The position numbers and the translations under genes were made by a program. Below, piece after piece: positions 38,872-57,001 of a stretch of DNA of 59,846 bases. The notes under the pieces were generated by a model that saw only the letters and a list, made by a program, of their open reading frames with translations, ran no database searches and was not told where the DNA came from. Source of the DNA: a virus (Duplodnaviria > Caudoviricetes); IMG/VR virus record IMGVR_UViG_3300037502_002383, positions 1-59,846 of that record; one strand, 5' to 3'. Numbering within the stretch: position 1 is the stretch's first letter; every line of letters begins with the position of its first letter.

Positions 38872-38881
38872 GGAGAAACAC

Positions 38882-39382
38882 ATGGCCACCGGACTCATTC
38901 AAGACGAGATGGCGCGCCCGGAGGGTGAAGAGCTCACCACCGAGGCCGTCACGCAGAACATCCAGATGCCGCCTGAGCTGCAGCGCGCCTACGACCGCGT
39001 GGTCGTGGCGGGCATGAAGATCATGTTCGGCAAGGACTCGCACAAGCTGATGCTCAAGGAGCTGCAGCGCGAAGGCCCTCTTGCGCAGAAGCTTGGGCAA
39101 GGCATCGCCGGCCTGGTGCTGCTGCTTTACAAGGAGTCCAACGGCACGATGCCGCCGGCGGTGATGATCCCTGCCGGGGTGTACTTGACCATGCAGGCGG
39201 TGGACTTCATGCGCCAGGCCGATTTGGAGAAGGTCACGAACCAGGACATCGGCGATGCCATGGAAATCATGGTCAGCACGATCATGGAGAAGTTCGGCGT
39301 TGCGCCGGAGAAGCTCCAGTCGGTGCTGAGCCAGTTCGACAACCAGAACGTGGATGCTGCCGCGCAGCAGATGGGGGTCTGA
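38882..39382 (+). CDS. Hypothetical helical virion protein
   Basis: 166 aa, GAGGAG RBS. Confidence 0.7.
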   Translation: MATGLIQDEMARPEGEELTTEAVTQNIQMPPELQRAYDRVVVAGMKIMFGKDSHKLMLKELQREGPLAQKLGQGIAGLVLLLYKESNGTMPPAVMIPAGVYLTMQAVDFMRQADLEKVTNQDIGDAMEIMVSTIMEKFGVAPEKLQSVLSQFDNQNVDAAAQQMGV

Positions 39383-39383
39383 C

Positions 39384-40190
39384 ATGGGGCTGAGCGGACT
39401 CATCGCCGGCGCGCTGGGCGGCGCGGCCAAAGGCTACACCGAAAACGCCGAGGCAGAGAACAAGAAGCGCATCCAGCTGGACCTGCAAAAGGAGCTGATG
39501 GCGCTGGAGGAGGAGAAGGCTCTGCGCGTGGACGAGGTCCGGCGCAACCGCGACTTCGCCGACAAGAAGCGCGATATCCAGGAACTCGACCCGTTGCGCA
39601 TCCAGTCGAAGGTTGGCGAGACCACGGCTGTCGGTGGCGCCACCACGGACGTCATGGTCGGCCGCGAGGACGCGCTGCGCCCCGGCAAGGCGGCCACTGC
39701 CAGAGCCGAGGCCGATGCCCGTGCCGATGCTGAGCGCGCCGCTCTGGGTGCTTACGCCGGCGATCCCAACGCCCGCGCTGGCACTCGTGCCAAGGCCGCT
39801 GACAGCGAGACGTCTTCGCAGCGGGCAGCCGCCGCGGCGTCTGTTGCCAACGCCAACCTGACCAACCTGTCGATCAAAGAGCGGCAGGCGGTCACCGATC
39901 TGCAGCGAGAGTACGAGAACCCGAACACGAGCGACGCTCGTCGTGCGGAGATCATGCGCTCGCTCACCGTGCGCGGCGTCGTCAAACCTGGCGAGTTCGA
40001 CACGGAGAAGGTCACGACCGAGAGAACGGGCGACGACGGCAGCACGGTCAAGACCGAGCGCACGCAACGGCGCACGGGTGCTTCGGCTCCAGCGGCTCAG
40101 TACAAAGAGGGTGACACCGTGACGCTGAAGAACGGCGGCAAGGGCGTGGTCATCAACGTCGACGGCAAGCTGATGGTCAAACCGCTCTGA
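39384..40190 (+). CDS. Ejection protein (probable)
   Basis: MGLSGLIAGALGGAAKG N-terminus, coiled coil, short C-terminal beta motif. Confidence 0.65.
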   Translation: MGLSGLIAGALGGAAKGYTENAEAENKKRIQLDLQKELMALEEEKALRVDEVRRNRDFADKKRDIQELDPLRIQSKVGETTAVGGATTDVMVGREDALRPGKAATARAEADARADAERAALGAYAGDPNARAGTRAKAADSETSSQRAAAAASVANANLTNLSIKERQAVTDLQREYENPNTSDARRAEIMRSLTVRGVVKPGEFDTEKVTTERTGDDGSTVKTERTQRRTGASAPAAQYKEGDTVTLKNGGKGVVINVDGKLMVKPL

Positions 40191-40200
40191 GGATCCCCTG

Positions 40201-43200
40201 ATGGCCACGTACCTGCCGCTGTCCGAGATCGCTCCGCCCGAGGGCCTGCTCCCGCTGGATCAAGCAGTGGGGCTGTGGACGCCCGAGAAACAGAAGCCTG
40301 AAGGCGCGTTTGCTCGCGCCGGGCGGGTGTTGCAAGATCCTGACGGTGGGGTGCTGCCGGCGGTTGGTTCTCTGATTGCTTCGGCTTTGCCAGAGGGCGG
40401 CGACAAACGCACCGCTGGAGGCTTTGCTGCGGACACTGCGGTGGACGTGACCCGGGGTGTCGTCAGCCTCGGCCAAGGGGTGGTCGGCCTCGGCAACCTC
40501 ATCACGTTCGGCGGCCTGGGCAAGGTGCTGGAGACGGTCGGCTACAGCGGTGACCAGACGCAGCAATTCCTGTCGGGGCTGTACACCGCTGACCGCCAGA
40601 TCGCGCAGCGCAACGTGCAGGAAGCCGAAGGTTTCGTTGACACGCTCAAGGCGCTGGCGGTCAACCCCAGCGAGTTGTTCGGCACCATCGTCCAGGCGGT
40701 GCCCCAGACCGTGGGCGCCGGCGCGGCTGGTGGAGCCATCGTGCGCCAACTGCTGCCGCAAGCCGGCAAGGCTGCTGCCGCAGCCGGATTGGTCGGCGAC
40801 GACGCCACCAAGTTCATCAGCAACTTCGTCGCCAAGCGGGCCGCCGTCGCAGCCGGTGCGACCGAAGGCGCCCTGACCGCGGGCGGCATCGCGGAGTCCG
40901 GGCGCGAGGCCGGCCAGGATTACACGACCTACGCTCCGGCCGCACTGGCTGGCGGAGCATTGACTGCGGCTATTGGCGCGGGCAGCGCAAGCGTGGCACG
41001 CCGCATCGGCTTGGGCGACGTGGAAGCCGACATCGCGATGCGCGGTGCCGGCGTTGCACCGTCTGGCGTGAAGGGTGGCCTGATCAGCCGCACGGCCAAG
41101 GGCGCGCTGCAAGAGGGCGTGTTGGAAGAGGCGCCGCAATCGTTCCAAGAAGAGCTCTTCACCCAGGCTGCCACCGGTCGACCGTTCAACCTGGAGGAGG
41201 CCGGCAGTGCTGCGGCCACCGGCTTGGCGGCCGGCGCGGGCATGGGCGGCTTCAACGCCGCGCTCTCGCGCTCGCGTCCGCCCGAGCAGCCCGCACCCGC
41301 CCCCGCACCGCCGTCCGCACTGCAGGACCTGGCCGACGCCAACACCGAGCTCACCGCTGCGGCGGACGCATACCTGCAGGAGCTGCGCCAGGCGCCGACC
41401 GTTGACCAGGCCATTGAGGCGTTCGGCAAGGCTGCGCAGGTGCCGGTGGCTCCGGCTGAGCTGACCATGGACGAGCGGCTGGCCGCCGCTGAGGCCCCGG
41501 GCCTGCTCGGCCGTCAGCTCGACATCCAGCGCCAGCTCGATCAAGCCGCCGGCTTGGACGTCGCGCCGACCGCTGAGCGTCCTACAGCCCCGGCGCTCGC
41601 GCCCCTGCCGCAGCCCGCGGCTCAGCGCAACATGGAGCTGATGGGCCAAGCTGCGCAGGCCGGCACGGAGTTCGAGCGCCAGCAGGCGCTTGAGCAGGCC
41701 AAGGTCTCGCTGCCCACTCCGGCACCGGGCCCGGCCGCGCGCTACGCCGACCTCACACCGATGGACGCGCGCCAGGCGCAGCAGCGGCTGACCGTGCTGC
41801 AGGAGCAGACCGGCACCCCGCTGAGCTTGGAGATCGTCCCGCACCCGGCGCAGAAGGAGCGCTTTGCGATCGGCCGGCGCGAGCTGCCGGTCAGCGCCGC
41901 CGACCTGGAGATGCCGGACCTGCGCGCCCCTGTGGCGCCTGCGCAAGCCCAGGCGCAGATCGAGTCTGCAGCCCTGGCCGGCAAGGAGGTGCAGCGCCGC
42001 GCAGAGGACGCGCCGCGCCAGCAGATGATCAGCCGGGCGATGGCCAACATCGAAGCCCGCGGCGGAGTGGCCTCGCCCTACGAGGCGGAGCTGCTGCGCT
42101 CGGCCAACCTGGGCCAGCCGTACAACAGCATTGATCCGAACCTTGGCCGCCCGGCTTCTCAGGACCAGCTGCTGACCGCAGCCACCGGCATCTCGGTTGG
42201 CTCCGAGGCGGGCCTGGGCTACGGCGCCCGGTCCTCGACCACCGTGCCCCCGGCTCCTGCGCCGTTCGCGTACACCCCTGACGCACAGGGCCGCAAGCGC
42301 GCCGAGCCGGCGGAGCAAGCTGCGCCGGAGGTCGACATCGTCGGCACGTTCGTGCAGCAGATGCGCGAGACCAACACGCCCGCAGCCCGGGCGTTCGTGC
42401 AAGACTTCGAGGCCGGGCGGATCTCGCCGGCTGAGGTGCAAAGCGCGCTGGACATCCAGCGTGGTCTGCCGCCCAGCTCGCAAGAGCGCATCGAGGGTGC
42501 GGCCGCAGCAGCGCCGGCGCCCGCCACGCCGACCGGCGTGCAGGTGGAGACGTCCAGCGCCAGAGTCGAGAACCCCGCACTGCGCGAGGCAGTGGAGCTG
42601 TACGGCAACCGCCCGCTCACGCAGCAAGACCTGACGGTGGAGGGCGCCACAGCGCGCATCGCTCGCGCCGGCCAGCAGGCTCCGGCACCGCAGGTCACGG
42701 CAAGCGGCATTGAGATCGCCCAGAGCGAAGACCTGACGCCGCGCGGGGCGTTCCGCGGGCGCAACGAGGCGATCCGTGCCGGCAATAACCTGCCGAGGCC
42801 GACGATGGTCGGCGGCCGCCGTGCCGCGTCGCTCACGGACGCTGATCTGCAGCAGACGGCCAACGACATGGGCCTGCCGGCCATCACTCGCCGCGGCGCT
42901 CAGATCGAGCTGCTGGCGCGCCAACAGACCGAGCGGGCAGCTGCCCCCGCCCAGCCGGCGGCTGACGATGTCAGTGCGCGTCTGCAGGCCGCTGCGGCTC
43001 AAGCCACCAAGCCGCTGGACCAGCCTGCGCCGGGGCGCATCATCACCTCTGGGGTGAAGATGTCCACCGCTCGGGCGGCGGTGCCGGGTAGCACGCTGAC
43101 CGTCAACGACCAGGGCACCGACCACCAGCTTCGCGTAGTGGACAGCTCCACGCTCGGCGAGCCGGGCAAGATGATCCAGCAGGTGGCTCGGATCTTCGGC

Positions 43201-46200
43201 AAGAAGGTGGTCGTGTTCGAGTCCGACACCGCGCAGGTGGACGGCTTCGTGCAGGACAACGACGACTCCACGATCTACCTGAGCGCGAAGTCCAGCATCT
43301 CGCCGCTGGCGGTGTTCGGCCACGAGCTCACGCACCTGATCAAGCGCGACAGCCCCGAGGCCTACAGCGCGTTGGAGGCGGTGGTCAGGGCCAACCTGAA
43401 GCCTGAGGGCATGGCCGGGTTCGAGCAAGACTACGGCCAGGGCGCGAACCTGGAGGAGCTCGCCAGCGATCTGGTGGGCAACCGGTTCCAGGAGGCCGAC
43501 TTCTGGAACGGCGTGTTCGAGGACATCGCTGCCAAGAACCCCGAGCAGTCGCGCGGCATCATCACCCGGCTGGCCGCGTCGGTGAACAAGGCGGTCAACG
43601 CCTTCATCCGCGTGGTGCGCGGCCAGACGTTCAACGCTGACCAGTACGTCAAGGACCTGACCGCGGTGAAGGCCGCGGTGCGCACCGCAGTAAGCCAGTA
43701 CGCGCAGCAGCGCCGCGAGCCGGCCATGCGGCTGGACGCCGAGCTCATGCGTCAGGAGAGCCAGGTCGACTTGACCGCGGGCTCTCGCATGCCCGCGAGC
43801 GCAAGTGTGGCTGGCGAAACGGCAGAGCCGATGGGCATCACGGCAAGCGCGACTCGCGCAGCGCCGGACAGCGCCGCTGCTGAGAACCGGATGGCGATTG
43901 TCGTCGGCGCCAAGCCGGGCGAGTTCAACTGGAACTTCACCCGCTCGGACCTGACGCCGCCCCCGTTCACCGCGCCAACTCAGTACGGACCACGCTTGGA
44001 GAAGATCGGCGAAGGCGTCTACGAGATCCTGCGCTCCAACGGGTTCAAGAAACTGGCTGAGGAAGCGTTCGGGATCAAGGGGCTGCGGGTGGCCCCGCTG
44101 CACGGGTCTTGGTTGAACAAGCCGGAGCCCAGCTTTGCGCTGTACGCAGAAGGGCTGACGTTCGAGCAGGCCGACGATCTGTCGAAGATGCTGGGCTTTG
44201 CCTTCGCGCAAGACGCGACGGTTGTCTTCCAGCCTACTTCTCAAGAGTCGCCTGGAGAGATACCTGCGGTCTACATCGGCGGCAAGAAGAAACTCACCGA
44301 TGAGCAGATGAAAGCAGTGCTATCATCTGCTCAGGCAGAGGGTATTGACTACAGCTCGACTGCCGACGGCAAAGCGGTTCGTTTCCTGCACTTTGGAGAT
44401 GATGCCGGCTTAGCTGAGCTGATGCAGAAGACGGCTCGCATTGCGAGTAATGCCGGTCTTGGCGCACCGAGGGTGGTCTACGTAAGGAGCCAGTTGAATG
44501 AAGCGGACAGCTATACCAAGGGAACGGGTGGAAGCGCTGGCCAAGCAGTATGGCTTGGAAGTGGCGAAGCCGGACGACCCGGTCTATTCCGAAGGACCGT
44601 CGATCATGTTCTCGTCCCGTACGCAAAAGTCGTCGGAGGCGAAGGTTATCGATTTGCCGTATCGCGATTTGCCCAGCGATTCGGACTCTCAGCAGAACAG
44701 CAAGGACTGATTCGCCAGGCGCTGCTGCCCAAGAGCGGCGCCGACAAGGCAACCATTGACGTTGCCTCGGGCAAGGTCAAGCTCGACATTAAGCCCACCG
44801 GGGCCCGAAACAAGATCTCGGTTTCCGACATTCTCTGGGCGCTCCAGAACCGCTCCGCGCAAGCCGGCCTCATTGAGCCGGGCGACTACAGCGACCAAGC
44901 CCGCAAGCTGATTGCTGAAGCAATTGCGGAAGAAGTTCTTCACAACATCAATGACACGTCAACCGGCAAGTCCGCCATCGGCTGGTACGACCGTGCGCTG
45001 AAGGCTGCCAAAGAGAAGTACGCGGCAATCTTCCCTGAGCTCAAGACTGATCGCAATCGCGAGCTCGTGTTTGATGCGGTGCTTGGCATCACCAGCCAGG
45101 GCAACGACGTCTTCAGCAACTCGTTGTTTGCGGGCCGCGTCTACGAGATGACCACTCGTCAGAACATGACCCTGGGGCAAGCCGTTGCCGCGCTCAAGGG
45201 CACGTTCGGCGGCGAGACCGTGGCAATCGAGAACAACATCCTCAAGCTGGAGGAGTTGATCAACCGCAACGGCTACGACGCCATGCGCAAGTTCTTCAAT
45301 AAGAAAGACACGGTCTCCAACATCAACGCTAAGCTGCGAGCAGATTCGACCCTGTTCTACAAGAACAAACCCCTCTCGGTTGACGGCGCCGCAGATCAGC
45401 GGGTCACCGGTTGGATGGTGTTTGGGCCAAAGATCGGCTCGTTCATCAACAACCTGCACGGCGACTACAGCACCCTGACCGCAGACCTGTGGTTCAGCCG
45501 CACCTGGAACCGGATTCTCGGATTCTCGTTTGTGCATGCTCCGGCTCGCGAGGCCGAGCAGTACCAGACGTTCGTGTCTGCTCTGCTTGCCGAGTACGGA
45601 TTTGCCAAAGACAGAGAAGGCCCGATCCAACCCAAGCGAATCAGCAAGACCGGCGAAGCGGAAATGCCGGAGTTCGGAACGGACGCAGCTGATCTGACAG
45701 ACGCAGAGGTTGAGCAGATCGTTGCCGACCCCGACGCCGCGCTGAACTACGCAACGGAGCTCGAAGCGATCTACCGCAAGGGTGGCTACAAGGCCAAGAC
45801 GGATCTGCGCCGCGCTGCCAAGAACTGGATCGAGAACCGCACAGACCCCGTTGCGTTGCCGCGTACCGACTGGGAGCGAGACTTCCAGCAGCGCACTGTT
45901 GAGACAGCTCAGAAAATCATCAAGCGCCGAACTGGCCAAGAAATCACCATCGCCGACATACAAGCCGCGCTTTGGTACTACGAGAAGGACAACTTGTTCA
46001 AGCTGCTGGGTGGCACGAACAAGAAGAGCGAGGCTGCGGACTACGCAGGGGCGGCCGATGAAACTCTGAGGGCGTACCAAGCTGGGGACCTCTTCTACGC
46101 CAAGACTGACGACCGGTACGTGTTCGGCAGCAAGGGCAGCTACCGGGTGCAGGCATCGCGCTCAAGAGAACGCGCCGCAACCGACATTCCGCTGGCAGAA

Positions 46201-46347
46201 TTGCGCGGCCGCAAGGTCGCCATGCAGGTTCGCGTCGAGTCCACCGGCGAGACCGGCACGCTGACCATGGACGCCGGCGATTCGCTCACCGACATCAACG
46301 AGCGAGAGACCGCCATGCAACGCCTGCTGGAGTGCGTGCGCAAATGA
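40201..46347 (+). CDS. Giant polyvalent ejection protein (2048 aa)
   Basis: Gly/Ala helical N-region with EGVLEEAPQ, zincin-like HELTH (43321-43335) and C-terminal cargo domains. Confidence 0.8.
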   Translation: MATYLPLSEIAPPEGLLPLDQAVGLWTPEKQKPEGAFARAGRVLQDPDGGVLPAVGSLIASALPEGGDKRTAGGFAADTAVDVTRGVVSLGQGVVGLGNLITFGGLGKVLETVGYSGDQTQQFLSGLYTADRQIAQRNVQEAEGFVDTLKALAVNPSELFGTIVQAVPQTVGAGAAGGAIVRQLLPQAGKAAAAAGLVGDDATKFISNFVAKRAAVAAGATEGALTAGGIAESGREAGQDYTTYAPAALAGGALTAAIGAGSASVARRIGLGDVEADIAMRGAGVAPSGVKGGLISRTAKGALQEGVLEEAPQSFQEELFTQAATGRPFNLEEAGSAAATGLAAGAGMGGFNAALSRSRPPEQPAPAPAPPSALQDLADANTELTAAADAYLQELRQAPTVDQAIEAFGKAAQVPVAPAELTMDERLAAAEAPGLLGRQLDIQRQLDQAAGLDVAPTAERPTAPALAPLPQPAAQRNMELMGQAAQAGTEFERQQALEQAKVSLPTPAPGPAARYADLTPMDARQAQQRLTVLQEQTGTPLSLEIVPHPAQKERFAIGRRELPVSAADLEMPDLRAPVAPAQAQAQIESAALAGKEVQRRAEDAPRQQMISRAMANIEARGGVASPYEAELLRSANLGQPYNSIDPNLGRPASQDQLLTAATGISVGSEAGLGYGARSSTTVPPAPAPFAYTPDAQGRKRAEPAEQAAPEVDIVGTFVQQMRETNTPAARAFVQDFEAGRISPAEVQSALDIQRGLPPSSQERIEGAAAAAPAPATPTGVQVETSSARVENPALREAVELYGNRPLTQQDLTVEGATARIARAGQQAPAPQVTASGIEIAQSEDLTPRGAFRGRNEAIRAGNNLPRPTMVGGRRAASLTDADLQQTANDMGLPAITRRGAQIELLARQQTERAAAPAQPAADDVSARLQAAAAQATKPLDQPAPGRIITSGVKMSTARAAVPGSTLTVNDQGTDHQLRVVDSSTLGEPGKMIQQVARIFGKKVVVFESDTAQVDGFVQDNDDSTIYLSAKSSISPLAVFGHELTHLIKRDSPEAYSALEAVVRANLKPEGMAGFEQDYGQGANLEELASDLVGNRFQEADFWNGVFEDIAAKNPEQSRGIITRLAASVNKAVNAFIRVVRGQTFNADQYVKDLTAVKAAVRTAVSQYAQQRREPAMRLDAELMRQESQVDLTAGSRMPASASVAGETAEPMGITASATRAAPDSAAAENRMAIVVGAKPGEFNWNFTRSDLTPPPFTAPTQYGPRLEKIGEGVYEILRSNGFKKLAEEAFGIKGLRVAPLHGSWLNKPEPSFALYAEGLTFEQADDLSKMLGFAFAQDATVVFQPTSQESPGEIPAVYIGGKKKLTDEQMKAVLSSAQAEGIDYSSTADGKAVRFLHFGDDAGLAELMQKTARIASNAGLGAPRVVYVRSQLNEADSYTKGTGGSAGQAVWLGSGEAGRPGLFRRTVDHVLVPYAKVVGGEGYRFAVSRFAQRFGLSAEQQGLIRQALLPKSGADKATIDVASGKVKLDIKPTGARNKISVSDILWALQNRSAQAGLIEPGDYSDQARKLIAEAIAEEVLHNINDTSTGKSAIGWYDRALKAAKEKYAAIFPELKTDRNRELVFDAVLGITSQGNDVFSNSLFAGRVYEMTTRQNMTLGQAVAALKGTFGGETVAIENNILKLEELINRNGYDAMRKFFNKKDTVSNINAKLRADSTLFYKNKPLSVDGAADQRVTGWMVFGPKIGSFINNLHGDYSTLTADLWFSRTWNRILGFSFVHAPAREAEQYQTFVSALLAEYGFAKDREGPIQPKRISKTGEAEMPEFGTDAADLTDAEVEQIVADPDAALNYATELEAIYRKGGYKAKTDLRRAAKNWIENRTDPVALPRTDWERDFQQRTVETAQKIIKRRTGQEITIADIQAALWYYEKDNLFKLLGGTNKKSEAADYAGAADETLRAYQAGDLFYAKTDDRYVFGSKGSYRVQASRSRERAATDIPLAELRGRKVAMQVRVESTGETGTLTMDAGDSLTDINERETAMQRLLECVRK
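44498..44710 (+). CDS. Overprinted 70-aa ORF inside the giant gene
   Basis: TAAGGAG (44483-44489) 8 nt before ATG; protein-like sequence (PDDPVYSEGPSIMF). Confidence 0.5.
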   Translation: MKRTAIPRERVEALAKQYGLEVAKPDDPVYSEGPSIMFSSRTQKSSEAKVIDLPYRDLPSDSDSQQNSKD

Positions 46348-46712
46348 AGACCGTCAAGGACCTCACCGAGCTCAAGCAACTCGCGCTCAGCCGAGGCGCG
46401 ACCGTTGAGGTCGGCGCGTCGCGCTACAACACCACCGGCGAGCGCGTGAAAGCGTTCCCCAAGCCCACTCCAGCGCCGGCGCCTGTCACGCCAGAGCCGG
46501 TCAAGGCGGAGCCCGCGCCAGCGCCAGCGCCGATGCCCGCGCCGCAGATCACCGTGGACCTGCAGCCTGTGGCGCAGGCGCAAGAACGCATGGCACAAAT
46601 GTTCGCCCAAGCGATCTCGTCGATGCCAAAATCCGCGCGCGAGTGGATGTTCACGGTGGAGCGAGACGCCAACGGTCTGCTCTCCTCCATCCGGGCCACT
46701 GCGAAGGACTGA
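46344..46712 (+). CDS. Pro-linker protein with C-terminal WxFTVERDANG motif
   Basis: ATGA overlap with the giant gene. Confidence 0.7.
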   Translation: MKTVKDLTELKQLALSRGATVEVGASRYNTTGERVKAFPKPTPAPAPVTPEPVKAEPAPAPAPMPAPQITVDLQPVAQAQERMAQMFAQAISSMPKSAREWMFTVERDANGLLSSIRATAKD

Positions 46713-46715
46713 CCC

Positions 46716-48287
46716 GTGGCCGCAGCCTCCTACACCACCGACCTGGTCGACTGGATTCTTGACTCCGACACCACGGCGTGGACGGAGCTGACCAACGCCA
46801 CCAGCGGTGGCGCACCGGACGAGGTGGACACCGAGTCGGCGCTGCAAGGCACGAATTCGTGCTCGCAGATCACCAACACCACCGCGCTGTGTTCGCTAAT
46901 TCGCATTTTGGCGACACCGATCACATTGTCTGCGGGGCAGGTGTTTCTGATGTGGCACGGTCACGGCGTAGCAACGGCGTTGCAGTCGTATGCCAACGGC
47001 GGACTACGCACAGTGGTGTCGGGCAACGCAGTCGGCAACTGGAAAGCATGGAGCGTGGGCGGCAACGACGTAGCCCCGTTCCCGTATGCCAAGTGGGTCA
47101 ACAGCCCCATTGACCCCACCGTCACCGCTGACTACACCAACGGCACGCCGCCCACCGGTGCGACCAACATCTACGGCGTCGGGTCCATGTGCATCCTCAC
47201 GCAGCCGGTGGCTCGGGGCCAGCCGCACATCGTGGACATCATTCGCTACGGTCGGGCTGAGGCCCGCATCAACGGCGGAGACCTTGCCAATGGCTACGCC
47301 ACCTTTGGCGATTTTGCGGCACAGAACGACACCTCAGCCAACCGCTGGGGGTTAATTCAGTCTGTCACGGGCGGCTATCAGTGGAAGGGCCTGATGGTGT
47401 TAGGCCACGCCAGCGCGGTGGACTTCCGCGACTCCAACACCGCACTTTTTGTGCAGGACTGCCGCAAGGTCACGGCCACCTTCAACAAGATCGAGGTGCG
47501 CCAAGCCGGTAGTAGGGTGGACTGGACCAACATCTCGATCACTAACTCGTCACCAACCACCAACGTCTCGCCCGGTGACTTTGAGGCCATCGACGACGCG
47601 GACATCAACTTCACGGGATGCACGTTTACCGACATGGGGACGTGGATTTTTAAGCCCAACAGCACCATCAACGACGTCACCTTTCGCCGCTGTGGCCGCG
47701 TCACGCTGGGCGGAGCGACGATGAGCGACTGCGTCATTACTCGCAGCACGGCCACCACGGCGCTGCTGGCGGGGTCGTCGGTCAGCACGCTGTCCAACAC
47801 CAGCTTCACGTCAGCCGGCACCGGCCACGCCATCGAGATCACGGGCGGCACGACCCACACGCTCAACGGTCTGACCTTCAGCGGCTACGCCGCCAGCAAC
47901 GGCAGCACCGGCAACGAGGCGGTCTACGTCAACATCGCCAGCGGCAACGTCACGATCAACTCGGACAGCGCCATCAGCGTGCGCACCGCAGGCGCCACGG
48001 TCACCGTGGTGGCGGGCCAGAAAACCCTGACCGTCACGGGCATCGTCAGCGGCTCTGACGTGGTCATCCTGACTGCCGGCACTGACACCGTGCTGGCCAT
48101 CAACGACGGCGCCACCAACCCCGTCACCAGCTTCGCCTACAGCTACACCTACAGCGCCGGCGTCAACGTGGACGTGGCCGTCTACAAGGCCGGGTACGTG
48201 CCCTACATCGTGCGCAACTACCTGCTGGAGAACGGCAACGCCTCGCTGCCGGTGGCGCAGGTGGTCGACAGGAACTACACACCATGA
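46716..48287 (+). CDS. Beta-rich structural protein with beta-helix-like segment
   Basis: NFTGCTFT / INDVTFRRC / MSDCVIT / LSNTSFT rungs; Ig-like C-terminus. Confidence 0.7.
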   Translation: MAAASYTTDLVDWILDSDTTAWTELTNATSGGAPDEVDTESALQGTNSCSQITNTTALCSLIRILATPITLSAGQVFLMWHGHGVATALQSYANGGLRTVVSGNAVGNWKAWSVGGNDVAPFPYAKWVNSPIDPTVTADYTNGTPPTGATNIYGVGSMCILTQPVARGQPHIVDIIRYGRAEARINGGDLANGYATFGDFAAQNDTSANRWGLIQSVTGGYQWKGLMVLGHASAVDFRDSNTALFVQDCRKVTATFNKIEVRQAGSRVDWTNISITNSSPTTNVSPGDFEAIDDADINFTGCTFTDMGTWIFKPNSTINDVTFRRCGRVTLGGATMSDCVITRSTATTALLAGSSVSTLSNTSFTSAGTGHAIEITGGTTHTLNGLTFSGYAASNGSTGNEAVYVNIASGNVTINSDSAISVRTAGATVTVVAGQKTLTVTGIVSGSDVVILTAGTDTVLAINDGATNPVTSFAYSYTYSAGVNVDVAVYKAGYVPYIVRNYLLENGNASLPVAQVVDRNYTP

Positions 48288-48448
48288 AGACCATCGTGGA
48301 CTCAACGGACAAGAAGCACCTGGGCGAGCGCGTCGACGAGACCGCCGAGGTCATCACCTTCGCCAACGGCGAGACCATGAACGTCGAGAAGCGGCTGCAC
48401 GACAACACCGTGCTGGCCAACAGCAACTACGTCATCTACCTGGAGTAA
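48284..48448 (+). CDS. Hypothetical 54-aa protein
   Basis: MKTIVDSTDKKHLG...LANSNYVIYLE; ATGA overlap; strong codon bias. Confidence 0.65.
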   Translation: MKTIVDSTDKKHLGERVDETAEVITFANGETMNVEKRLHDNTVLANSNYVIYLE

Positions 48449-48451
48449 GCC

Positions 48452-49846
48452 ATGCCCAAGATCATCGACGGCGACGACCTGAACGTCGGCACCGAAATCA
48501 CCATCAACACCACCGCCAAGACCTTCACGCTCGTGGCGGCCGGTAACCTGGTGGCCAAGGACGGCGTCACGCTGCAGGCGCTGTACTCCAAGTTCATCAA
48601 GCTGTGGGAGACGGACACTTACAACAAGTTTCCGTTCCCCATGTACGCGATTGACGCGAAGTCTGGCCAGTTCCAGTTCGGCACGGACGGTGGCAGCTTC
48701 TCCGGCTGGAAGCCTTCGGGTGACGTGACGCGCCAGATGTTGCGCGACGGCGGCTGGTCGGAGTACACCTCCGGTGGCGTCCTGGCCCGCCAGTACGTCG
48801 GCATCGTGTCTCTGGGTGAGGTGAGCACAGGCGCACAGCTTTACTACCAGCGTGCAGCCGCAGACGGCCCGACTAATTTCACCTTCACCGATGAGGTGAA
48901 CGAAGGCATCCAGGTCTACGGCGACATCGCCGCCGACGCCACGACAACCACCTTCGACAAACGCGCCTTCTTCAAGGCCTACGCCCGCGAGGAGCAGAAG
49001 ACCTACTCCAGCTCCACCCTGGCCGACACTGGCCAGACCGCGACGGGCGCCTACACCGTCAACGTGCTGCTGTCCAACGCCGACGACCTCAACACCCTTG
49101 TGGCTGACAGCGGCATCGGCGTGGCGCCGTACACCGGCATCAACGTCAGCTACTACTCGGTGGCGCAGTCCATCGACATCAACGCGGTCACCGACAACTA
49201 CCCGTTCTCGATCATCGTCGAGGGCAACAACGCCACGCTGCAGGAGATCTACACCAAGGTGCAGTACCTGCTGCGCCAGGGCACCGACATCAACAGCGCG
49301 GCGACCAACAGCGCGGGCACCAAGATCGGCAAGATCCAGAACGACTTAATGTACTTCGTCGGCCCGGACCTGTTCTGCCGTCAGGGCGTGTTCATCCAGA
49401 ACATCGACCCCAACTTCCTGAACAACGTCTACTTCATCGACGACAACGCCGTCGCGCGCCAGTACAACTACGCAGCCGCTGGTCAGCTGCAGTTCAACAG
49501 CTTCCTCACCAGCGGCAGCACGGGCTACTACCGCATGTACATCACCGACTCGGTGACCGGCACGGATGACTACGGCACCGCCACCGCCATCACGGTGAAC
49601 GACAAGGATGGCAACCCCATCGCGGGCACCATCGACGCGGCCACCAAGGGCTTCACCTTCGCCTACGACACCAACACCCAGGGCGGCCGCTCAGTGTTCA
49701 CCAGCCCCGGCGGTGACGTGCCCGTCACGGTGGTGGCCGGCAACAAGGGCGTGGCCAAGCCGGTGGTTGCCACAGGTACGATCAGCCGGTCCAAGGGTAT
49801 CGTGATCGGCCTGGTGGCTGAACAAGACCGCGCCTACGTGGCCTGA
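48452..49846 (+). CDS. Putative structural protein
   Basis: 464 aa; GVTLQALYS / ATLQEIYT internal duplication; ends EQDRAYVA. Confidence 0.7.
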   Translation: MPKIIDGDDLNVGTEITINTTAKTFTLVAAGNLVAKDGVTLQALYSKFIKLWETDTYNKFPFPMYAIDAKSGQFQFGTDGGSFSGWKPSGDVTRQMLRDGGWSEYTSGGVLARQYVGIVSLGEVSTGAQLYYQRAAADGPTNFTFTDEVNEGIQVYGDIAADATTTTFDKRAFFKAYAREEQKTYSSSTLADTGQTATGAYTVNVLLSNADDLNTLVADSGIGVAPYTGINVSYYSVAQSIDINAVTDNYPFSIIVEGNNATLQEIYTKVQYLLRQGTDINSAATNSAGTKIGKIQNDLMYFVGPDLFCRQGVFIQNIDPNFLNNVYFIDDNAVARQYNYAAAGQLQFNSFLTSGSTGYYRMYITDSVTGTDDYGTATAITVNDKDGNPIAGTIDAATKGFTFAYDTNTQGGRSVFTSPGGDVPVTVVAGNKGVAKPVVATGTISRSKGIVIGLVAEQDRAYVA

Positions 49847-49858
49847 TAGGAGCAGAGC

Positions 49859-51223
49859 ATGAGCATGAACAGCTTCATCCGAGTGCCGCCGGATTCCACC
49901 GGCAAGCGCCTCTACGCGCACCAGCACACCATCGACGCGACGGAGATGCACGTTCAGGCCATGCACCTGAGCGACCCGGACTCGCCGCAGTACATCCAGC
50001 GCATCGACGAGCAGGGCGCTGCCTCGGTGCGCTTCAGCGAGGGCCAGCCGCTGATGGCGGGCTTCGGATCGCTCAAGGTCTCCAACCAGCGGGCGCTCGG
50101 GGTGTACGAGTCCACGCTGGTGGAGAACCCGGACTTCACCGACGAGATCACCGGCACCGCCGCCGCCACCTACAACTCGGCGTCATCGAGCATCGTGTTG
50201 TCCACCGACAGCACCAACGGCTCGCGCATCTTCCGCACCAGCGACCGGCACCACTACTACATGCCGGGCACCTCCAACCTGGCCATGATGACCGTGGCGT
50301 GCGGCGACAGTGGCAAAGCCAACAACCGCCGCTGCTGGGGCCTGTTCACCGAGAACGACGGCCTGTTCTTCGCGCTGGATGGCACGACAGTCAAGGTGGT
50401 GGTGCGCTCCTCGGTCACCGGCTCGGTGGTGGACACGGCCATCACCCAGGCCAACTGGAACGGCGACAAGCTCGACGGCACTGGCCTGTCGGGCGTCACG
50501 CTGGACATCACCAAGATCAACGTCTGGTGGATCGATTACCAGTGGTTGGGCGGCGGCCGCGTGCGTTTCGGCATCTACGGCCCGGACGGCCAGCGCATCA
50601 CCGTCCACAAGGTGCAAAACGCCAACACGCAGGCGCTGCCCTTCATGCGCACCGGCACGCTGCCCGTGCGGTTTGAGAACGACAACATCGGCGCCACGGC
50701 ATCCGGCAGCGAGCTGCGCTTCGTCTGCGCGGCCGTCTACGCCGAAGGCAACTTCGACGACTACATCTTCAATCGCTTCTCTACCGGCATCCTCACCAAG
50801 AACGTCTCGGCCGCGCAGACCTTGCTGCTGGCCCTGCGCCAGGTGGCCATGATCGACGGCAAGCACAACTGCATCCAGACCTTCCCGGAAACGCTGAACG
50901 TCTACACCACAAAGCCCATCGGCATCACTCTGTTCCAGGACGTGGATTACAGCGGCGGCACCTGGGCGGCCTCGTCCTACCAAGCGCGGCTGGAGCGCAG
51001 CACGGACGGCACGTTCACCTATGCCCAGAGCAAGCCGATGAAGACCTTTTTCTTCAATGCCGGCTGCACCACGGTGGACCTCTCGGCCTTCTTCGAGGTC
51101 AACGACCGGGGCATCATGGTGGCGGCTGACGGTACGCAGCAGGTCTGGGCCTTCCTGTGCTCGCCGCTCACAGCCGAGGCCGCTGATGTCTCCATCAATC
51201 TGAGCTACAAGGAACTCGGGTGA
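49859..51223 (+). CDS. Putative structural beta-sandwich (lectin-like) protein
   Basis: PPDSTGK N-terminus; QANWNGDKLDGTG, IDYQWLGGGRVRFG. Confidence 0.7.
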   Translation: MSMNSFIRVPPDSTGKRLYAHQHTIDATEMHVQAMHLSDPDSPQYIQRIDEQGAASVRFSEGQPLMAGFGSLKVSNQRALGVYESTLVENPDFTDEITGTAAATYNSASSSIVLSTDSTNGSRIFRTSDRHHYYMPGTSNLAMMTVACGDSGKANNRRCWGLFTENDGLFFALDGTTVKVVVRSSVTGSVVDTAITQANWNGDKLDGTGLSGVTLDITKINVWWIDYQWLGGGRVRFGIYGPDGQRITVHKVQNANTQALPFMRTGTLPVRFENDNIGATASGSELRFVCAAVYAEGNFDDYIFNRFSTGILTKNVSAAQTLLLALRQVAMIDGKHNCIQTFPETLNVYTTKPIGITLFQDVDYSGGTWAASSYQARLERSTDGTFTYAQSKPMKTFFFNAGCTTVDLSAFFEVNDRGIMVAADGTQQVWAFLCSPLTAEAADVSINLSYKELG

Positions 51224-51906
51224 TCGTCTGGGCCGCCCACGGCGCTGAATGGGCGCTGGCCGAGAAGGTCAGCTTCAACGGCGTCACCAAGCGCATCACG
51301 GTCAACGCCGGGGTGACGGCGCTGGACATCCGCGAGGACGTCTACAGCGCCTGGGTGCGGTGGGTGGAGCGCGAGGACAACGCCCGGTTCCGCCTGGCCA
51401 TGCGGGTCTCAGGCTTCGATCCCATCCCGGGCGGCTTCACGGGCGCGACCTACTTCATGACCAACGGCTGGAAGCTGGAGTACGACCCGAACGTGGTGGC
51501 CATCGCCGGCGTGCTGTACTCCGACGACTACGCCACGCCGTACTGGTCAGCCACTGACCAGCCCATCTTCCCGGCCACGGTGTCCTCGCTGGTCAACAGC
51601 GCGGTGGTCACCCAGAACGTGGTCACCGGCACGGCGCTCACCCAAGCCCAGACAGCGGACGCCGTGTGGCAGGCCGCCGCGCGCACGCTCACCGCCAGTC
51701 TGGACCCGACCAAGGAGCAGATCGCCGCTCAGGTGCGCATCGCTCTGGCGGACGAGCTCACGCGCATCCTTGAGATCGCTGCGCTGCACGGCTTGGTGCT
51801 TGGCAGCCCGCTCACGGTCACGACGACCGAGCGCACGGCTGGGTCGATTGCGCAGTCGATCACCAGTGAGGCGGGCGGCGGCACGACCGTCACCCGGACT
51901 GCGTGA
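51220..51906 (+). CDS. Putative structural protein
   Basis: DVYSAW..W...YFMTNGWK; TADAVW motif. Confidence 0.7.
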   Translation: MIVWAAHGAEWALAEKVSFNGVTKRITVNAGVTALDIREDVYSAWVRWVEREDNARFRLAMRVSGFDPIPGGFTGATYFMTNGWKLEYDPNVVAIAGVLYSDDYATPYWSATDQPIFPATVSSLVNSAVVTQNVVTGTALTQAQTADAVWQAAARTLTASLDPTKEQIAAQVRIALADELTRILEIAALHGLVLGSPLTVTTTERTAGSIAQSITSEAGGGTTVTRTA

Positions 51907-52208
51907 TCGACACCCGCGCCGTTGCCCTTCAGGGCATCGGCTTTGGCCCGCTGGCCGTTGCCACGCTGGGCTATCTGGTCGAGGCCGAGCAGCCTTCGGC
52001 AATACCTCCTGACCTGGCGTGGATCAACGCCAACGCCCGCGCCTACGGCAAGCGGCGCACAGCCGGGTATGGGCGGGAATACGGGGATGCCGAAGAGATG
52101 CGGCGCAGCATTGCGCTGTTGCGGCAGATCGAGGAAGAAGATGAAATCGTGCTGGCGCTGGTGATGTCCGCCGTGCCGCTGCTAGGAGCTGACCAATGGC
52201 GACAATGA
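51903..52208 (+). CDS. Small protein with acidic-hydrophobic C-terminus
   Basis: AVALQG...EEEDEIVLALV; GTGA overlap. Confidence 0.65.
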   Translation: MIDTRAVALQGIGFGPLAVATLGYLVEAEQPSAIPPDLAWINANARAYGKRRTAGYGREYGDAEEMRRSIALLRQIEEEDEIVLALVMSAVPLLGADQWRQ

Positions 52209-55200
52209 AGATGACCGGGTGCATGAAGATCGTCTCGCGCATGAGCGAGGCCGATCAGGACGCGCTGCTGTCGCGCTTGGATGCGTACCAAGCCGACGGC
52301 GTCCCGGCCGAGCGTGCGCAGCTGATGGCCGCGCAGGACATGCTGGCCGAGATCCAGGGCGAGCGCGACCAGCTCTTCAACCTGCTGCGCGAGCAACACC
52401 CCGACCTGTTCTCGGTCGCTGAGGAGCCTCAGCCCGTCGCCGAAGAACCCCAGCCTGCCACCGCCGAGAACCCCGACATCACCGCCAGCCGGCGCCGCAC
52501 CATCTTCGGCAGCCCTGCGCCGCTGGCCAACTGGACGATGCCTGCGGAGACCAAGTTCGACGACTGGATCTACAAGCTGCAGGACAAGCAGGTGGACATG
52601 AAGCGGGTGATCGAGGCGATCAGCCGCAACGGCGGACTGTCCGACCAGTGGAACGCCTACCTGCAAGAGGAGCTCTACCACGGGCGCAGCGCCAAGGCGA
52701 CCAAGGACTTCGGCCTGAAGGAAGTCCGGCCGCTGATGGAGGAGCTGGAGAAGTCAAAGGTCGGCCTCGCTGACTTCGAGGAGTACCTGCACAACCGCCA
52801 CGCCGAGGAGCGCAACACCCAGATCGCCAAGGTCAACCCGGCCATGCCCGACGGCGGCTCGGGTATCGACACCGCGGATGCGCGAGCCTATCTCGCAGCA
52901 CTGGACCCGGCCAAGCGCCGCACCTACGAGGCGCTCGCCCGTCGCGTGGACGCGATCTCCCAGGGCACGCGCGAGCTGCTGGTGCGCTCGGGCCTGGAGA
53001 CGCAGGACACGATCAACCAGTGGGAGGGCGCCTACAAGAACTACGTCCCGCTGATGCGCGAGGACCTGGACTACGGGCTGTCCTCGGGCATGGGCACCGG
53101 CAGCGGGTTCAGCGTCAGAGGCCCGGCCAGCCGTCGGGCCACCGGCTCCGACCGGCCCGTGGTGGACATCCTGGCCAACCTGCTCATGCAGCGCGAGCGG
53201 GCGATCGTGCGCGCTGAGAAGACCCGGGTCGGCACCGCGCTGTACGGCCTGGCGCTGCAGAACCCGAACGCGGACTTCTGGCTGCCGGTGGACCCCAAGG
53301 CGATCAAGGACGTGCCCGGCACCATGGCCAAGCTGCAGGCGATGGGGCTGGATCCGATGGACGTGCGCAACATCATGGAGGAGCCGCTGCAGCAGGTGGT
53401 CGATCCGCGCACCGGGCTGGTCACTTACCGCGTCAACGCCAACCTGCGCAACGCCGACAACGTGATGGCCGTGCGGGTCAACGGCGAAGACAAGTTCCTC
53501 TTCTTCAACACCCGCAACGAGCGCGCTGCGCGCATGGCCGCGTCGCTGAAGAACCTGGATGCCACCAGCCTCGAAGGGCTGCTCAACGTGTCGGGCAAGA
53601 TCAGCCGCTACTTCGCCGCGATCAACACCCAGTACAACCCAGTGTTCGGCGCGATCAACCTGCTGCGTGACGTGCAGGGCGCCGCTGTGAACCTCAGCAG
53701 CACCCCGCTCGCAGGCGAGCAAGCGGCTGTGCTCAAGGGCGTGGGCGGCGCCACCCTCGGAATCTATCGCTCCCTGCGCGCCGATAGATCCGGTCAATCG
53801 GGACCACCCGGCAGCTGGTCTGCGCTGTGGGAGGAGTTCCAGCGCGAGGGTGGGCAGACGGGTTTCCGCGACATGTTCCGCACGAGCGAGGACCGGACCC
53901 AGGCGCTGCAGGCCATGCTCGACCCAGCCTCTTGGACCGAGACGAAGTGGGGCAAGATCCTCACCGCTGGGGGCACGCTGAAGGTGCCGCTGGAGGCGGC
54001 GCGCAAGGGCGCTGCCGAGCCGGTCTTCAACTGGCTCTCCGACTACAACGAGACGTTGGAAAACGCGGTGCGCCTGAGCGCCTACAAGGCCGCCAAGGCC
54101 AAGGGCATGACCGCCCAGCAGGCCGCCTCGCTGGCCAAGAACCTGACGGTGAACTTCAACCGCAAGGGCGAGATCGGCACCCAAATGGGCGCGCTCTACG
54201 CCTTCTTCAACGCCAGCGTGCAGGGCACCGCCAGGCTGGCCGAGACGCTCAAGGGCCCGGCCGGCAAGAAGATCCTGGCTGGCGGCCTGCTGCTGGGCAC
54301 CGTCCAGGCGCTGGCCTTGGCCGCCGCGGGCTTCGACGAGGATGAGCCACCAGACTTCATCAAGGAGCGCAACTTGGTGATCCCCACTGGGGACGGCAAG
54401 TACCTCACCTTCCCGATGCCGCTGGGTCTGAACGTCATCCCCAACACCAGTCGGGTGCTGACCGAGTGGGCGCTGTCCGGCGGCAAGGATCCCGGCAAGC
54501 GGTTCGGGCAGATCGTCGGCGCGTTCGCCGACATGTTCAACCCGATCGGCAACGCCGGGCTGTCGGTGCAGACCATCGCCCCGACCTTCGCTGACCCGCT
54601 GGTGGCGCTGGCCGAGAACCGGGACTGGAGCGGCAAGCCGATCGCCAAGGAGGACCGCTCGGGCACCGACCCGACTCCCGGCTACACGCGAGCCAAGGAG
54701 ACGGCGAGCTGGGTGAGCAAGCAGCTGGCTTACTATCTGAACCTGGCCAGCGGCGGCACCAAGTACAAGCCCGGTGGCCTGTCACCCACGCCCGACCAGA
54801 TCGACTACCTGATCGGCCAGGTGACGGGCGGTGTCGGCCGCGAGGTCCTGAAGGTCACGCAGCTCGCCGAAAGCAAGGTGACCGGCGAGGAGCTGCCGAC
54901 CTACAAGGTGCCGATCGCGGGCCGGTTCTACGGCGACACCAAGGAGCAGGCGGCCACCGCCGACCGGTTCTACCGCAACGTGACGACCATCAACGAGCAT
55001 GAGAACGAGATCGAGGGGCGCAAGAAAAACCGCGAGGGTGGGATCCCCGAGTACATCAGGGAGAACCCGGAGGCTCGCCTCGTCACCTTGGCCAACCGCA
55101 TCGAGCGCGACGTGGCCGAGCTGCGCCGCAAAAAGCGTGAGATGCTAGAGAAGGACCGCCCCAAGGAGTCGATCAAGATGATTGAGCTGCAGATCACCCG

Positions 55201-55246
55201 AAAGATGGAGCAGCTCAACGCCCGGGTCGAAGCCCTTCAGGACTGA
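52196..55246 (+). CDS. LPD38-type large polyvalent-protein C-terminal module
   Basis: NYVPL, AKNLTVNFNRKG, YAFFNASVQG, ENRDWSGKPI, PDQIDYLI...TGGVG. Confidence 0.8.
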   Translation: MATMKMTGCMKIVSRMSEADQDALLSRLDAYQADGVPAERAQLMAAQDMLAEIQGERDQLFNLLREQHPDLFSVAEEPQPVAEEPQPATAENPDITASRRRTIFGSPAPLANWTMPAETKFDDWIYKLQDKQVDMKRVIEAISRNGGLSDQWNAYLQEELYHGRSAKATKDFGLKEVRPLMEELEKSKVGLADFEEYLHNRHAEERNTQIAKVNPAMPDGGSGIDTADARAYLAALDPAKRRTYEALARRVDAISQGTRELLVRSGLETQDTINQWEGAYKNYVPLMREDLDYGLSSGMGTGSGFSVRGPASRRATGSDRPVVDILANLLMQRERAIVRAEKTRVGTALYGLALQNPNADFWLPVDPKAIKDVPGTMAKLQAMGLDPMDVRNIMEEPLQQVVDPRTGLVTYRVNANLRNADNVMAVRVNGEDKFLFFNTRNERAARMAASLKNLDATSLEGLLNVSGKISRYFAAINTQYNPVFGAINLLRDVQGAAVNLSSTPLAGEQAAVLKGVGGATLGIYRSLRADRSGQSGPPGSWSALWEEFQREGGQTGFRDMFRTSEDRTQALQAMLDPASWTETKWGKILTAGGTLKVPLEAARKGAAEPVFNWLSDYNETLENAVRLSAYKAAKAKGMTAQQAASLAKNLTVNFNRKGEIGTQMGALYAFFNASVQGTARLAETLKGPAGKKILAGGLLLGTVQALALAAAGFDEDEPPDFIKERNLVIPTGDGKYLTFPMPLGLNVIPNTSRVLTEWALSGGKDPGKRFGQIVGAFADMFNPIGNAGLSVQTIAPTFADPLVALAENRDWSGKPIAKEDRSGTDPTPGYTRAKETASWVSKQLAYYLNLASGGTKYKPGGLSPTPDQIDYLIGQVTGGVGREVLKVTQLAESKVTGEELPTYKVPIAGRFYGDTKEQAATADRFYRNVTTINEHENEIEGRKKNREGGIPEYIRENPEARLVTLANRIERDVAELRRKKREMLEKDRPKESIKMIELQITRKMEQLNARVEALQD

Positions 55247-55263
55247 CCCGGGGTTGACTGCAA

Positions 55264-55440
55264 TGTTGGCTACACCCAACAACATGCACTTGCTAACTAC
55301 TGCTAACACTTGCAACCCTAAGTCGTTGATTCTTCTAGGATTCGTATGTTATCCGTGCTATCTTTGGTGCCCAGAAGAAGAGCCGTGTGATCTAGTGCCA
55401 TTGCGGGTCTTCAGGGTGTTGGCTACAGTTGTGGCTACAC
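55264..55440. other. attP with tRNA-3'-end core, arm sites and IHF site
   Basis: Core 55365-55381, reverse complement TCTTCTTCTGGGCACCA. TGGCTACA repeats near 55267, 55420 and 55432. AATCAACGACTTA (minus strand, 55319-55331) matches WATCAANNNNTTR. Confidence 0.8.
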
Positions 55441-55458
55441 CAACACCAAAGGCACGAG

Positions 55459-56804: not shown

Positions 56805-57001
56805 TTCATCCACTCCGGTTTCTTGGGCAGCGGTGCCCAGCCGATGTAGCCCGGCTTGCCGGGGCTGTACTGCCCGTACACAGCCACGCCTCCGGTGGTC
56901 AACAACTGCACCTTGGCCGACAGCGGGCACGTCTCAAGCGGCCGCCAGTAGTAGGCCTGGTCCACCGCTGCGGCCTTGTCGCTGGTGATCTTGACGGTTA
57001 T
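56801..57001 (-). CDS. Small phage protein with apparent ATA start (possible pseudogene)
   Basis: WRPLETCP..KVQLL..GGVA...GWAPLP; expected ATG is ATA. Confidence 0.55.
   Translation of the reverse strand: MTVKITSDKAAAVDQAYYWRPLETCPLSAKVQLLTTGGVAVYGQYSPGKPGYIGWAPLPKKPEWMK

Follow-up and report, generated by a model that had tools for sequence, protein, structure and literature searches.

A split LPD38-type polyvalent phage protein with single cysteines at the facing ends of its halves and a variable set of genes between them

The phage-type polyvalent proteins (Iyer et al. 2017, PMC5512222), which include gp47 of phi24B and the Bcep22 gp75-like ('DarB-like') proteins, combine an LPD38 domain and an HExxH region with swappable cargo bounded by linkers, are in their canonical form single chains of 2800-4300 amino acids (aa), and are encoded at the end of the late operon, next to an integrase gene. 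One of them, the LPD38 protein gp47 of phi24B, was found by proteomics to be abundant in virions (preprint 10.64898/2026.04.10.717836). Here we describe a locus that shares the domains, the linker-bounded cargo and the genomic position of these proteins, and differs from them in that its polyvalent protein is encoded by two genes, with seven others between them, and carries terminal connectors where the two products face each other. It occupies positions 40201-55246 of the IMG/VR virus record IMGVR_UViG_3300037502_002383, a member of the Caudoviricetes; the whole record of 59,846 nucleotides (nt) was analysed and is referred to below as the window.

For a pair of large proteins of this kind, the closest described case is the pre-ejectosome of cyanophage A4, in which the C-terminal helix of gp27 lies in a cleft of gp26 and Cys1715 of gp27 is disulfide-bonded to Cys5 of gp26 (PNAS 2025, PMC12002296). 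In the A-4L record, gp27 has 1717 aa and gp26 has 1114 aa, these two residues are the sole cysteines of the respective proteins, and the genes are 5 nt apart. The locus in the window resembles this pair in comprising two large serial proteins, otherwise free of cysteine, with a cysteine at each of the facing ends, and in the distance of the first cysteine from the C-terminus (residue 1715 of 1717, in the terminal helix, in gp27; residue 2045 of 2048 in the N-terminal half, P0001, in the window). It differs from the adjacent A4 genes in having seven genes between the halves, and the part of the A4 report drawn on here does not present gp27 and gp26 as products of the fission of a single polyvalent protein (PMC12002296).

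Two described kinds of interrupted gene also invite comparison. In the nrdA-a/mobE/nrdA-b arrangement of Aeromonas phage Aeh1, a gene has been cut by inserted DNA and its halves assemble, without splicing, via added peptides (PMC3045599), and in fractured genes, which involve split inteins and a free-standing endonuclease, foreign genes lie between the halves, whose products are proposed to be reconnected by terminal peptides (Dassa et al. 2009, PMC2677866). Unlike Aeh1 nrdA, which is interrupted by one endonuclease gene (mobE), the window has a structural cassette, and connectors like those of the window also occur without any insert (locus L050); unlike split inteins, the connectors gave no Hint or intein match and have their cysteines at the outer tips rather than at extein junctions. 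For Aeh1 nrdA, we know of no cysteine rule.

The words 'split', 'fission', 'linker' and 'separate genes' are absent from the main text of Iyer et al. (2017; PMC5512222), and full-text searches of the literature outside subscription journals and supplements found neither split LPD38 proteins nor a general rule of cysteine-tipped ends. A first-pass annotation of this DNA had put the locus forward as a candidate for an undescribed system; this is apt only in part, as a docked, disulfide-bonded helix has already been solved for A4 (PMC12002296).

One protein in relatives, two in the window

The features of the locus are collected in Table 1. The downstream half (C-half, P0002) has the LPD38 domain at residues 716-907 (nt 54341-54916; expectation value, E, 3.9e-44; score 151 bits, cut-off 27). 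Its residues 117-1012 align with the final ~900 positions of phrog_14770 (E 3e-203) and of phrog_616; the PHROG profiles matched are 2800-3900 positions long. In 353 phage records, it matches the C-terminus of one giant open reading frame (ORF), for example of 4203 aa in Bacillus phage Dartukuta, 3002 aa in MetMV and ~2794 aa in Stx phages; Vibrio, Ralstonia and Bcep22-like phages are also represented among these records. The upstream half (N-half, P0001) has no family in Pfam or PHROG scans. Its homologues (n=79) are of two kinds, short ones that lack LPD38 and long ones, of ~2900-3500 aa, with LPD38 at the end (here and below, ORFs in relatives are longest-ORF calls in G+C-rich DNA). Residues 400-1215 of the N-half are 50-87% identical to split and fused relatives, and the HExxH motif (HELTH, residues 1041-1045, nt 43321-43335) is retained in P0003, P0006, P0007 and P0028, which makes this region a candidate metallopeptidase.

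Among the fused forms, P0028 (3104 aa) has 56-58% identity to the N part and 64-75% to the C-half, and its homology to the latter begins at ENPDIT[A/K]SRRR. A complete relative of the phage, G001 (59,867 bp; 81% identity in terL, 80% in the portal protein and 94% in the major head protein, MCP), has homologues of the four genes that precede the N-half in the window, the last of them the 278-aa gene, then one fused ORF of 3169 aa with LPD38 (L009:10787-20296), and then the integrase gene; no match to any of the cassette genes was found anywhere in its 59,867-bp record. P0001 and P0002 thus correspond to the two parts of a protein that relatives make as a single chain. In the window, 5.8 kb separate the ORF with the cargo from that with the carrier, and we therefore treat the protein of the window as a fission variant and not as a canonical polyvalent member.

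The breaks in homology fall at a recurring linker. The pattern [ITVQL][TQ]AS..R has exactly three matches in P0001 and P0002 together, all of them at the linkers of Table 1. P0007 matches the N-half up to GITASATR, then has a different cargo, and rejoins it at VQASRSR; in locus L004, an additional ART domain stands between the N-terminal extension and the ASRRR linker of the C-half homologue. The cargo of the window itself recurs, with 43-100% identity, in over 40 giant polyvalent proteins, where its position differs from one to another, and the G+C content of 44001-46000 is 0.583, against 0.70 upstream and in the flanks; Pfam and PHROG gave no family for it, and the ESM Atlas returned unnamed viral clusters only. 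At the level of DNA, no common stretch or repeat was seen by eye between 46147-46167 and 52469-52498 (no repeat finder was run). Reads and contigs from four other runs that match within 45800-52800 are short pieces of 88-99% identity; no contig spans this stretch and none joins across the cassette, and they are uninformative on cassette-free variants.

Table 1. Features of the split locus and its surroundings in the window
Feature	Position	Strand	Basis or remark
terL	18078-19541
Major head protein (MCP)	26469-27527
Tail fibre	31511-33937
N-half of split polyvalent protein (P0001), 2048 aa, one Cys	40201-46347	+	Open throughout; 79 homologues
Conserved N-terminal carrier part with HExxH	40201-43833	+	Identity to relatives and retained motif
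Linker 1, GITASATR	43834-43857	+	P0007 diverges from P0001 directly after it
Cargo domain, ~760 aa, function unassigned	43858-46146	+	Common to >40 polyvalent proteins
Linker 2, VQASRSR	46147-46167	+	P0007 rejoins P0001 here
C-tail, 59 aa: strand-rich stretch and terminal helix ...MQRLLECVRK	46168-46344	+	Sole Cys codon 46333-46335
Cassette gene 1, 122 aa, conserved border	46344-46712	+	ATGA overlap with P0001 stop
523-aa beta-sandwich and beta-helix protein, putatively of tailspike or glycan-binding type	46716-48287	+	Model and Foldseek
54-aa predicted ORF	48284-48448	+	No family (Pfam, PHROG)
464-aa cassette protein	48452-49846	+	54% identity over 463 aa to L059 junction gene; no family
454-aa virion structural protein	49859-51223	+	phrog_1645, E 6.5e-66
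228-aa cassette protein	51220-51906	+	C-terminal end like end of 696-aa L004 protein; 30% identity to L059 junction stretch
Cassette gene 7, 101 aa, conserved border	51903-52208	+	Homologues always last before C-half
C-half (P0002), 1016 aa, one Cys, LPD38-type carrier module	52196-55246	+	Open throughout; PF18857
N-extension, ~90 aa: Cys9, two predicted helices, acidic proline-rich spacer	52196-52468	+	Cys9 codon 52220-52222
Linker 3, NPDITASRRR	52469-52498	+	Homology to fused P0028, Dartukuta and MetMV begins here
Tyrosine integrase	55429-56472	+	PF00589, E 1.8e-25; downstream neighbour in split and fused relatives

In an AlphaFold2 model of the C-half (predicted local distance difference test, pLDDT, 75.5), the protein is mostly helical, with helices of the N-extension predicted at residues 18-33 and 38-67 and a hydrophobic helix at ~692-712. 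Searches of the PDB by sequence and profile with this protein, with an alignment (A1) and with the 454-aa and 523-aa cassette proteins gave nothing meaningful, one profile search being empty. In a wide VIA-align search, the best match to an ejectosome was a weak one, of residues 119-563 of the model to a chain of the PhiM1 pre-infection ejectosome (8vb2_A; Z 6.4 and root-mean-square deviation 5.6 over 215 residues), which is below the informative level for helical proteins and serves as a lead at most; VIA-align otherwise gave generic helical matches only.

Cysteine-tipped connectors at the facing ends

What the fused relatives do not have is a pair of peptides at the ends that face the break. 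The 59-aa C-tail of the N-half, which begins ERAATD and ends in QRLLECVRK, also forms the very end of eight more of the short homologues, whose cargo varies, and is absent from the long forms that bear LPD38. At the other side of the break, the C-half starts with MATMKMTGCMKIV, and homologous N-extensions are found in nine other stand-alone LPD38 proteins; their two families, 'MATMKMTGCMKIV' and 'MSLTSCLRKAG', look different at first sight and do align. When 359 proteins, the giant fused ORFs among them, were searched with profiles of the two peptides, the C-tail profile matched 10, always C-terminally, and the N-extension profile matched 16, always N-terminally, with no internal match of either (some of the matches are training sequences of the profiles). 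Among sequences of 14-80% identity, five positions do not vary: L63 and C66 in the tail, and C9, G35 and A41 in the N-extension.

Stand-alone LPD38 proteins commonly have a further, unrelated type of N-terminus, 'M.C.Y.F' (~38 aa; type B), and such starts are paired with N-halves ending in '..INC[KD]'. The pairing of types could be judged in 11 loci with both halves visible: among the matches listed, the N-extension is of the ..C[LMI].. kind in all seven loci with a helix-type tail (..LL.C..), and of the C.Y.F kind in all four with an ..INC tail. Tail and N-extension look like a connector pair, and a portable one to judge from the tree of LPD38 cores described below.

The cysteines at these tips stand out in proteins that otherwise avoid this residue. 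P0001 has exactly one, at residue 2045 of 2048, and P0002 exactly one, at residue 9 of 1016; the 24 other translated ORFs of the window have 62 in 9903 residues, from which ~19 would be expected in 3064 residues, and the joint chance of the two positions is ~2e-5 if each single cysteine is placed at random. In the fused L009 ORF and in P0013, P0016 and P0060, there is no cysteine, and in the fused P0028 and P0025, cysteines occur only as a CX5CX3C cluster inside one cargo. In a set of LPD38 proteins of 558-1778 aa (n=120), there are 37 with a cysteine among the first 12 residues and no other, 76 that are cysteine-free and seven with one at another place. Outside the first 12 residues, the whole set has nine cysteines in 151,534 residues. 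Correspondingly, a cysteine lies within the last eight residues of 29 of the 79 homologues of the N-half (27 of them having no other), and 41 of the 79 have none.

The CX5CX3C cluster just mentioned (residues 1585-1595 of P0007, 1699-1709 of P0028 and 1654-1664 of P0025) belongs to a cargo classified as Pfam PF17338 and provides the sole internal cysteines there; in a protein that otherwise lacks this residue, such a cluster points to a metal or iron-sulfur site.

Two other roles for the terminal peptides were considered and rejected. A split intein is at odds with the lack of any Hint or intein Pfam match (E <= 0.01), with a tail that starts with ERAATD and not with Cys or Ser, and with an N-extension that is followed by ENPDITASRRR and lacks a final His-Asn with Cys, Ser or Thr after it. 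Lipidation of the cysteines in the manner of a lipobox or CaaX motif does not suit proteins in which, by inspection, no signal peptide precedes Cys9 and 0-4 residues follow the C-terminal cysteine across the types.

Much of the first-pass annotation thus fits what relatives have to tell. It had read the N-terminal part and the LPD38 part as one protein separated by seven tightly coupled genes, with ASR linkers as module borders, and had quoted the two terminal peptides. The ORFs are open as it described, the three linkers are where it placed them and the peptides end and begin as quoted, while relatives provide the module borders and the breakpoints at the linkers (in the P0028 and P0007 alignments), a single fused ORF in a syntenic genome whose record has no cassette gene (G001), and the co-occurrence of the two peptides, in matched types, in every locus with both halves in view.

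The junction and the origin of the break

In the window, seven + strand ORFs (122/126, 523, 54, 464, 454, 228 and 101 aa) fill 46344-52208, and neighbours either overlap by 4-13 nt or lie 3-12 nt apart; an ATGA stop/start overlap joins the N-half to gene 1, and the stop of gene 7 overlaps the start of the C-half. The first and last genes are conserved in the window, L004/L099, L096 and L101, with an exchangeable interior. Homologues of gene 1 come directly after the C-tail in L004 (58% identity), L096 (40%), L101 and G002, and gene 7 has 83% identity to its counterpart in L004 and 33% in L096, with a gene-7-like C-terminus in L101. The L096 version also has seven genes, and the interior in L004/L099 consists of genes for 134, 156, 200 and 696 aa, the 156-aa product being an HNH endonuclease. 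Locus L059 has different border genes, yet shares with the window the 464-aa gene (54%) and the C-terminal 265 aa of the 523-aa protein (41% identity, in a 746-aa protein of the L059 junction).

The 523-aa protein is modelled with high confidence (AlphaFold2, pLDDT 92.3) as all-beta. Its Foldseek matches were a GH87 glucanase (E 2.8e-6), the turret of the haloarchaeal virus HFTV1 (2.2e-4), carbohydrate-binding modules (CBMs; near 1e-2) and the LKA1 tailspike (7.5e-3), with low TM-scores because the targets are multi-domain; in the ESM Atlas only unnamed viral clusters were found for it. In tblastn, the 454-aa protein matched products annotated as virion structural proteins in cyanomyophages and in phage HMO-2011. 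With its beta-helix or CBM-like protein and its virion structural protein, the cassette looks like a set of host-recognition-type genes, a reading based on family matches and the model.

Two observations on cassettes of close relatives may be added here. The HNH endonuclease of L004 (L004:3210-3680 = L099:11000-11470; phrog_5046, E 1.4e-12) is encoded within the cassette and could drive cassette exchange. G002 (L014-L016), a 57,413-bp contig from a relative with 99% identity in MCP, has the C-half at its start and the first 35 codons of gene 1 at its end; its assembly therefore broke inside the cassette, perhaps from population variants there.

The number of genes at the junction varies widely. 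Our census is a small convenience sample from pattern-based scans, and the counts hold among the matches listed: between halves with homologous helix-type connectors there are no genes in L050, four in L101, five or six in L059, six in L004/L099, seven in the window and L096 and ~8 in L103, and between halves with type B connectors there are none in L128, one ferritin-like gene in L017/L018 and L108, and two doubtful ORFs in L151. In L050, a tail ending ..LEELIACLNK and a start of MAQLMSTSCLKLV.. are separated by TAA, 12 nt containing GGAG, and ATG, with no gene. The type B junction gene (162-163 aa; L018:9403-9894, L017:5975-6463, L108:8400-8888 and L087:2-241) is ferritin-like as judged by eye.

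In a tree of 106 LPD38 cores, the 16 split forms are spread among the 90 fused ones; the Fitch count is 11 changes, and the root is reconstructed as fused. It is a FastTree tree rooted at its midpoint, so that the root is arbitrary, two of the split calls are doubtful, and module exchange is a confounding factor. The window and L004, with the helix-type connectors here called type A, cluster with the type B loci L017/L018 at a support of 1.0. The tree, without being decisive, and the junctions fit the idea that connector pairs were moved by recombination and that the junction gathered genes later.

The first-pass annotation had proposed the reverse, that the cassette, occupying a cargo slot of the gene, brings its own stop, start and docking helices, which amounts to the entry of a mobile block into an intact giant gene. 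A precedent exists in Aeh1 nrdA, split by mobE, whose halves assemble through tails that stem from the insert (PMC3045599), and some features of the junctions speak for such an event: the window, L004/L099, L096, L101 and the two ends of G002 all combine type A connectors with the gene-1 and gene-7 borders, the L004/L099 cassette includes the HNH endonuclease (phrog_5046), and, among the ~90 loci compared, homologues of the cassette genes occur only inside other split junctions. Against it, the two members of the homologous connector pair of L050 are only 12 nt apart, without any gene between them; L059 and L103 have related connectors next to unrelated border genes; cassettes range from none to ~8 genes, with interchangeable interiors; and non-homologous cysteine-tipped pairs have 0-2 genes between them in type B loci and adjacent genes in A4. 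Moreover, Pfam and PHROG scans detected no nuclease family in any of the seven cassette genes of the window, and the inspection by eye described above revealed no DNA repeat at the two linkers. We therefore think it unlikely that the block came first, and the view that the cassette brought its own connectors is probably wrong.

Proposed fission and re-linking, and the setting of the locus

We hold with moderate confidence that an LPD38 protein was split by fission, that its halves are re-linked via cysteine-tipped connectors, and that the gap between them has served as a landing site for genes. According to this proposal, the gene of an LPD38-type polyvalent virion or ejection protein would undergo fission at an inter-domain linker, giving an N-half made up of the carrier and HExxH regions and one cargo, with the 59-aa tail and its sole cysteine at the end, and a C-half in which a helical, cysteine-bearing domain of ~70 aa is joined by a spacer and the usual linker to the LPD38 carrier module. 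During head assembly, the tail of the N-half may dock on the N-terminal domain of the C-half, and the two cysteines may form a disulfide in the particle, so that the linked gene products would act as one chain, packed in the capsid and leaving it with the DNA. The intergenic gap, lying in the late operon, would become a landing site for translationally coupled genes, which in the window would have taken up a seven-gene block with conserved ends and an exchangeable interior of host-recognition type. The split itself, the fused relatives, the breakpoints at the linkers, the strictly terminal connectors, the placement of the cysteines and the varied content of the junction are observed in the sequences, whereas we infer the docking, the disulfide, the location in the virion and the order of events.

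Two other accounts of the connectors have to be weighed against this proposal. The terminal peptides might dock without a covalent bond, the cysteines being used for metal binding or as a redox-sensitive release switch in ejection. The cytoplasm is reducing, and the cysteine pattern and the matched types would fit any role in which two thiols have to be close; however, one thiol per partner would probably be too few for the usual metal site, and the only solved case of the pattern shows a disulfide (PMC12002296), which makes this account, to our mind, quite unlikely. We consider it very improbable that the two are independent virion proteins that do not associate at all, with terminal peptides left over from recombination and a cysteine placement devoid of function. 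The N-half, which has no family match of its own, could be accommodated in this way, but at least three unrelated connector types keep one cysteine at the break-facing ends of otherwise cysteine-free proteins, the types are strictly paired in 11 of 11 loci (among the matches listed), and the five invariant residues of tail and N-extension have persisted over 14-80% identity.

Several observations weigh against fission followed by re-linking through a disulfide. Comparison of A4 gp27 and gp26 with P0001 and P0002 by blastp gave E > 0.5, the LPD38 profile was not significant on the A4 proteins, and Foldseek of the C-half model against the PDB gave no match at E <= 0.001, that is, no solved relative. 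As these comparisons gave no sequence similarity to A4 and no solved relative of the model, the analogy with A4 is one of architecture and cysteine placement only, and we do not file the locus as a homologue. Many of the 76 cysteine-free members of the LPD38 set are on contigs of a few kb and look 5'-cut, but some stand-alone forms without cysteine may be genuine, for example P0192, of 964 aa, on a 156-kb contig. In a reducing cytoplasm, the disulfide could form only in or after assembly. Seven of the eight type A/C loci have a cassette, and four of them share the gene-1 and gene-7 borders, from which entry of the cassette first, with later loss in L050, is conceivable. Finally, L110 and L111 (contigs of Zoogloea metagenome-assembled genomes) have a type B C-half and no N-half within 8-10 kb upstream, where an integrase gene, replication-like genes and other unrelated genes are found; the partner may be elsewhere in the prophage, or missing.

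The window is a complete temperate podovirus-like phage genome: it is the whole of its IMG/VR record (CheckV 100%; G+C-rich), and has primase/helicase, portal and tail genes in addition to those of Table 1. The split locus follows the terL-portal-MCP-tail genes and is at the end of the late operon, beside the integrase gene, which has a matching position in L004, L009/G001, L018, L099 and L101. Directly upstream of the N-half, at 35262-40190, are four ORFs of 701, 371, 166 and 278 aa, with no cysteine and no family match, whose order is kept ahead of the fused gene in G001; because they are cysteine-free, without family and conserved in order there, they are candidates for further internal or ejection proteins. 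A promoter and terminator scan of 39000-57000 found no more sites than expected from shuffled sequence, and the remaining genes of the window gave no match to Dartukuta, MetMV or Stx phage. The closest LPD38 cores are in genomes mostly of Betaproteobacteria, with at most 57% identity, which does not name a host.

The giant polyvalent and ejection proteins are among the least understood components of virions, and how a chain of ~3000 residues is packed and threaded out has been posed as an open question (preprint 10.64898/2026.04.10.717836). We suggest, tentatively and as something possible rather than probable, that cysteine-tipped pairs are a general and portable device by which tailed phages can encode giant, cysteine-free injected proteins in pieces and re-link them end to end through a disulfide in the capsid, and that the break is a protected, co-transcribed landing pad, which exchangeable host-recognition gene blocks have colonised in this lineage, so that injected cargo and receptor-binding modules are swapped at one recombination hotspot. 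If so, a single structural observation on A4 would be extended to a principle that applies across many phage lineages, and the cysteine rule would also explain the 'truncated' LPD38 proteins of annotation pipelines. The junction would be marked as a site of exchange for host-range genes and morons (such as the ferritin-like gene), and the short, matched connector peptides could serve for joining proteins.

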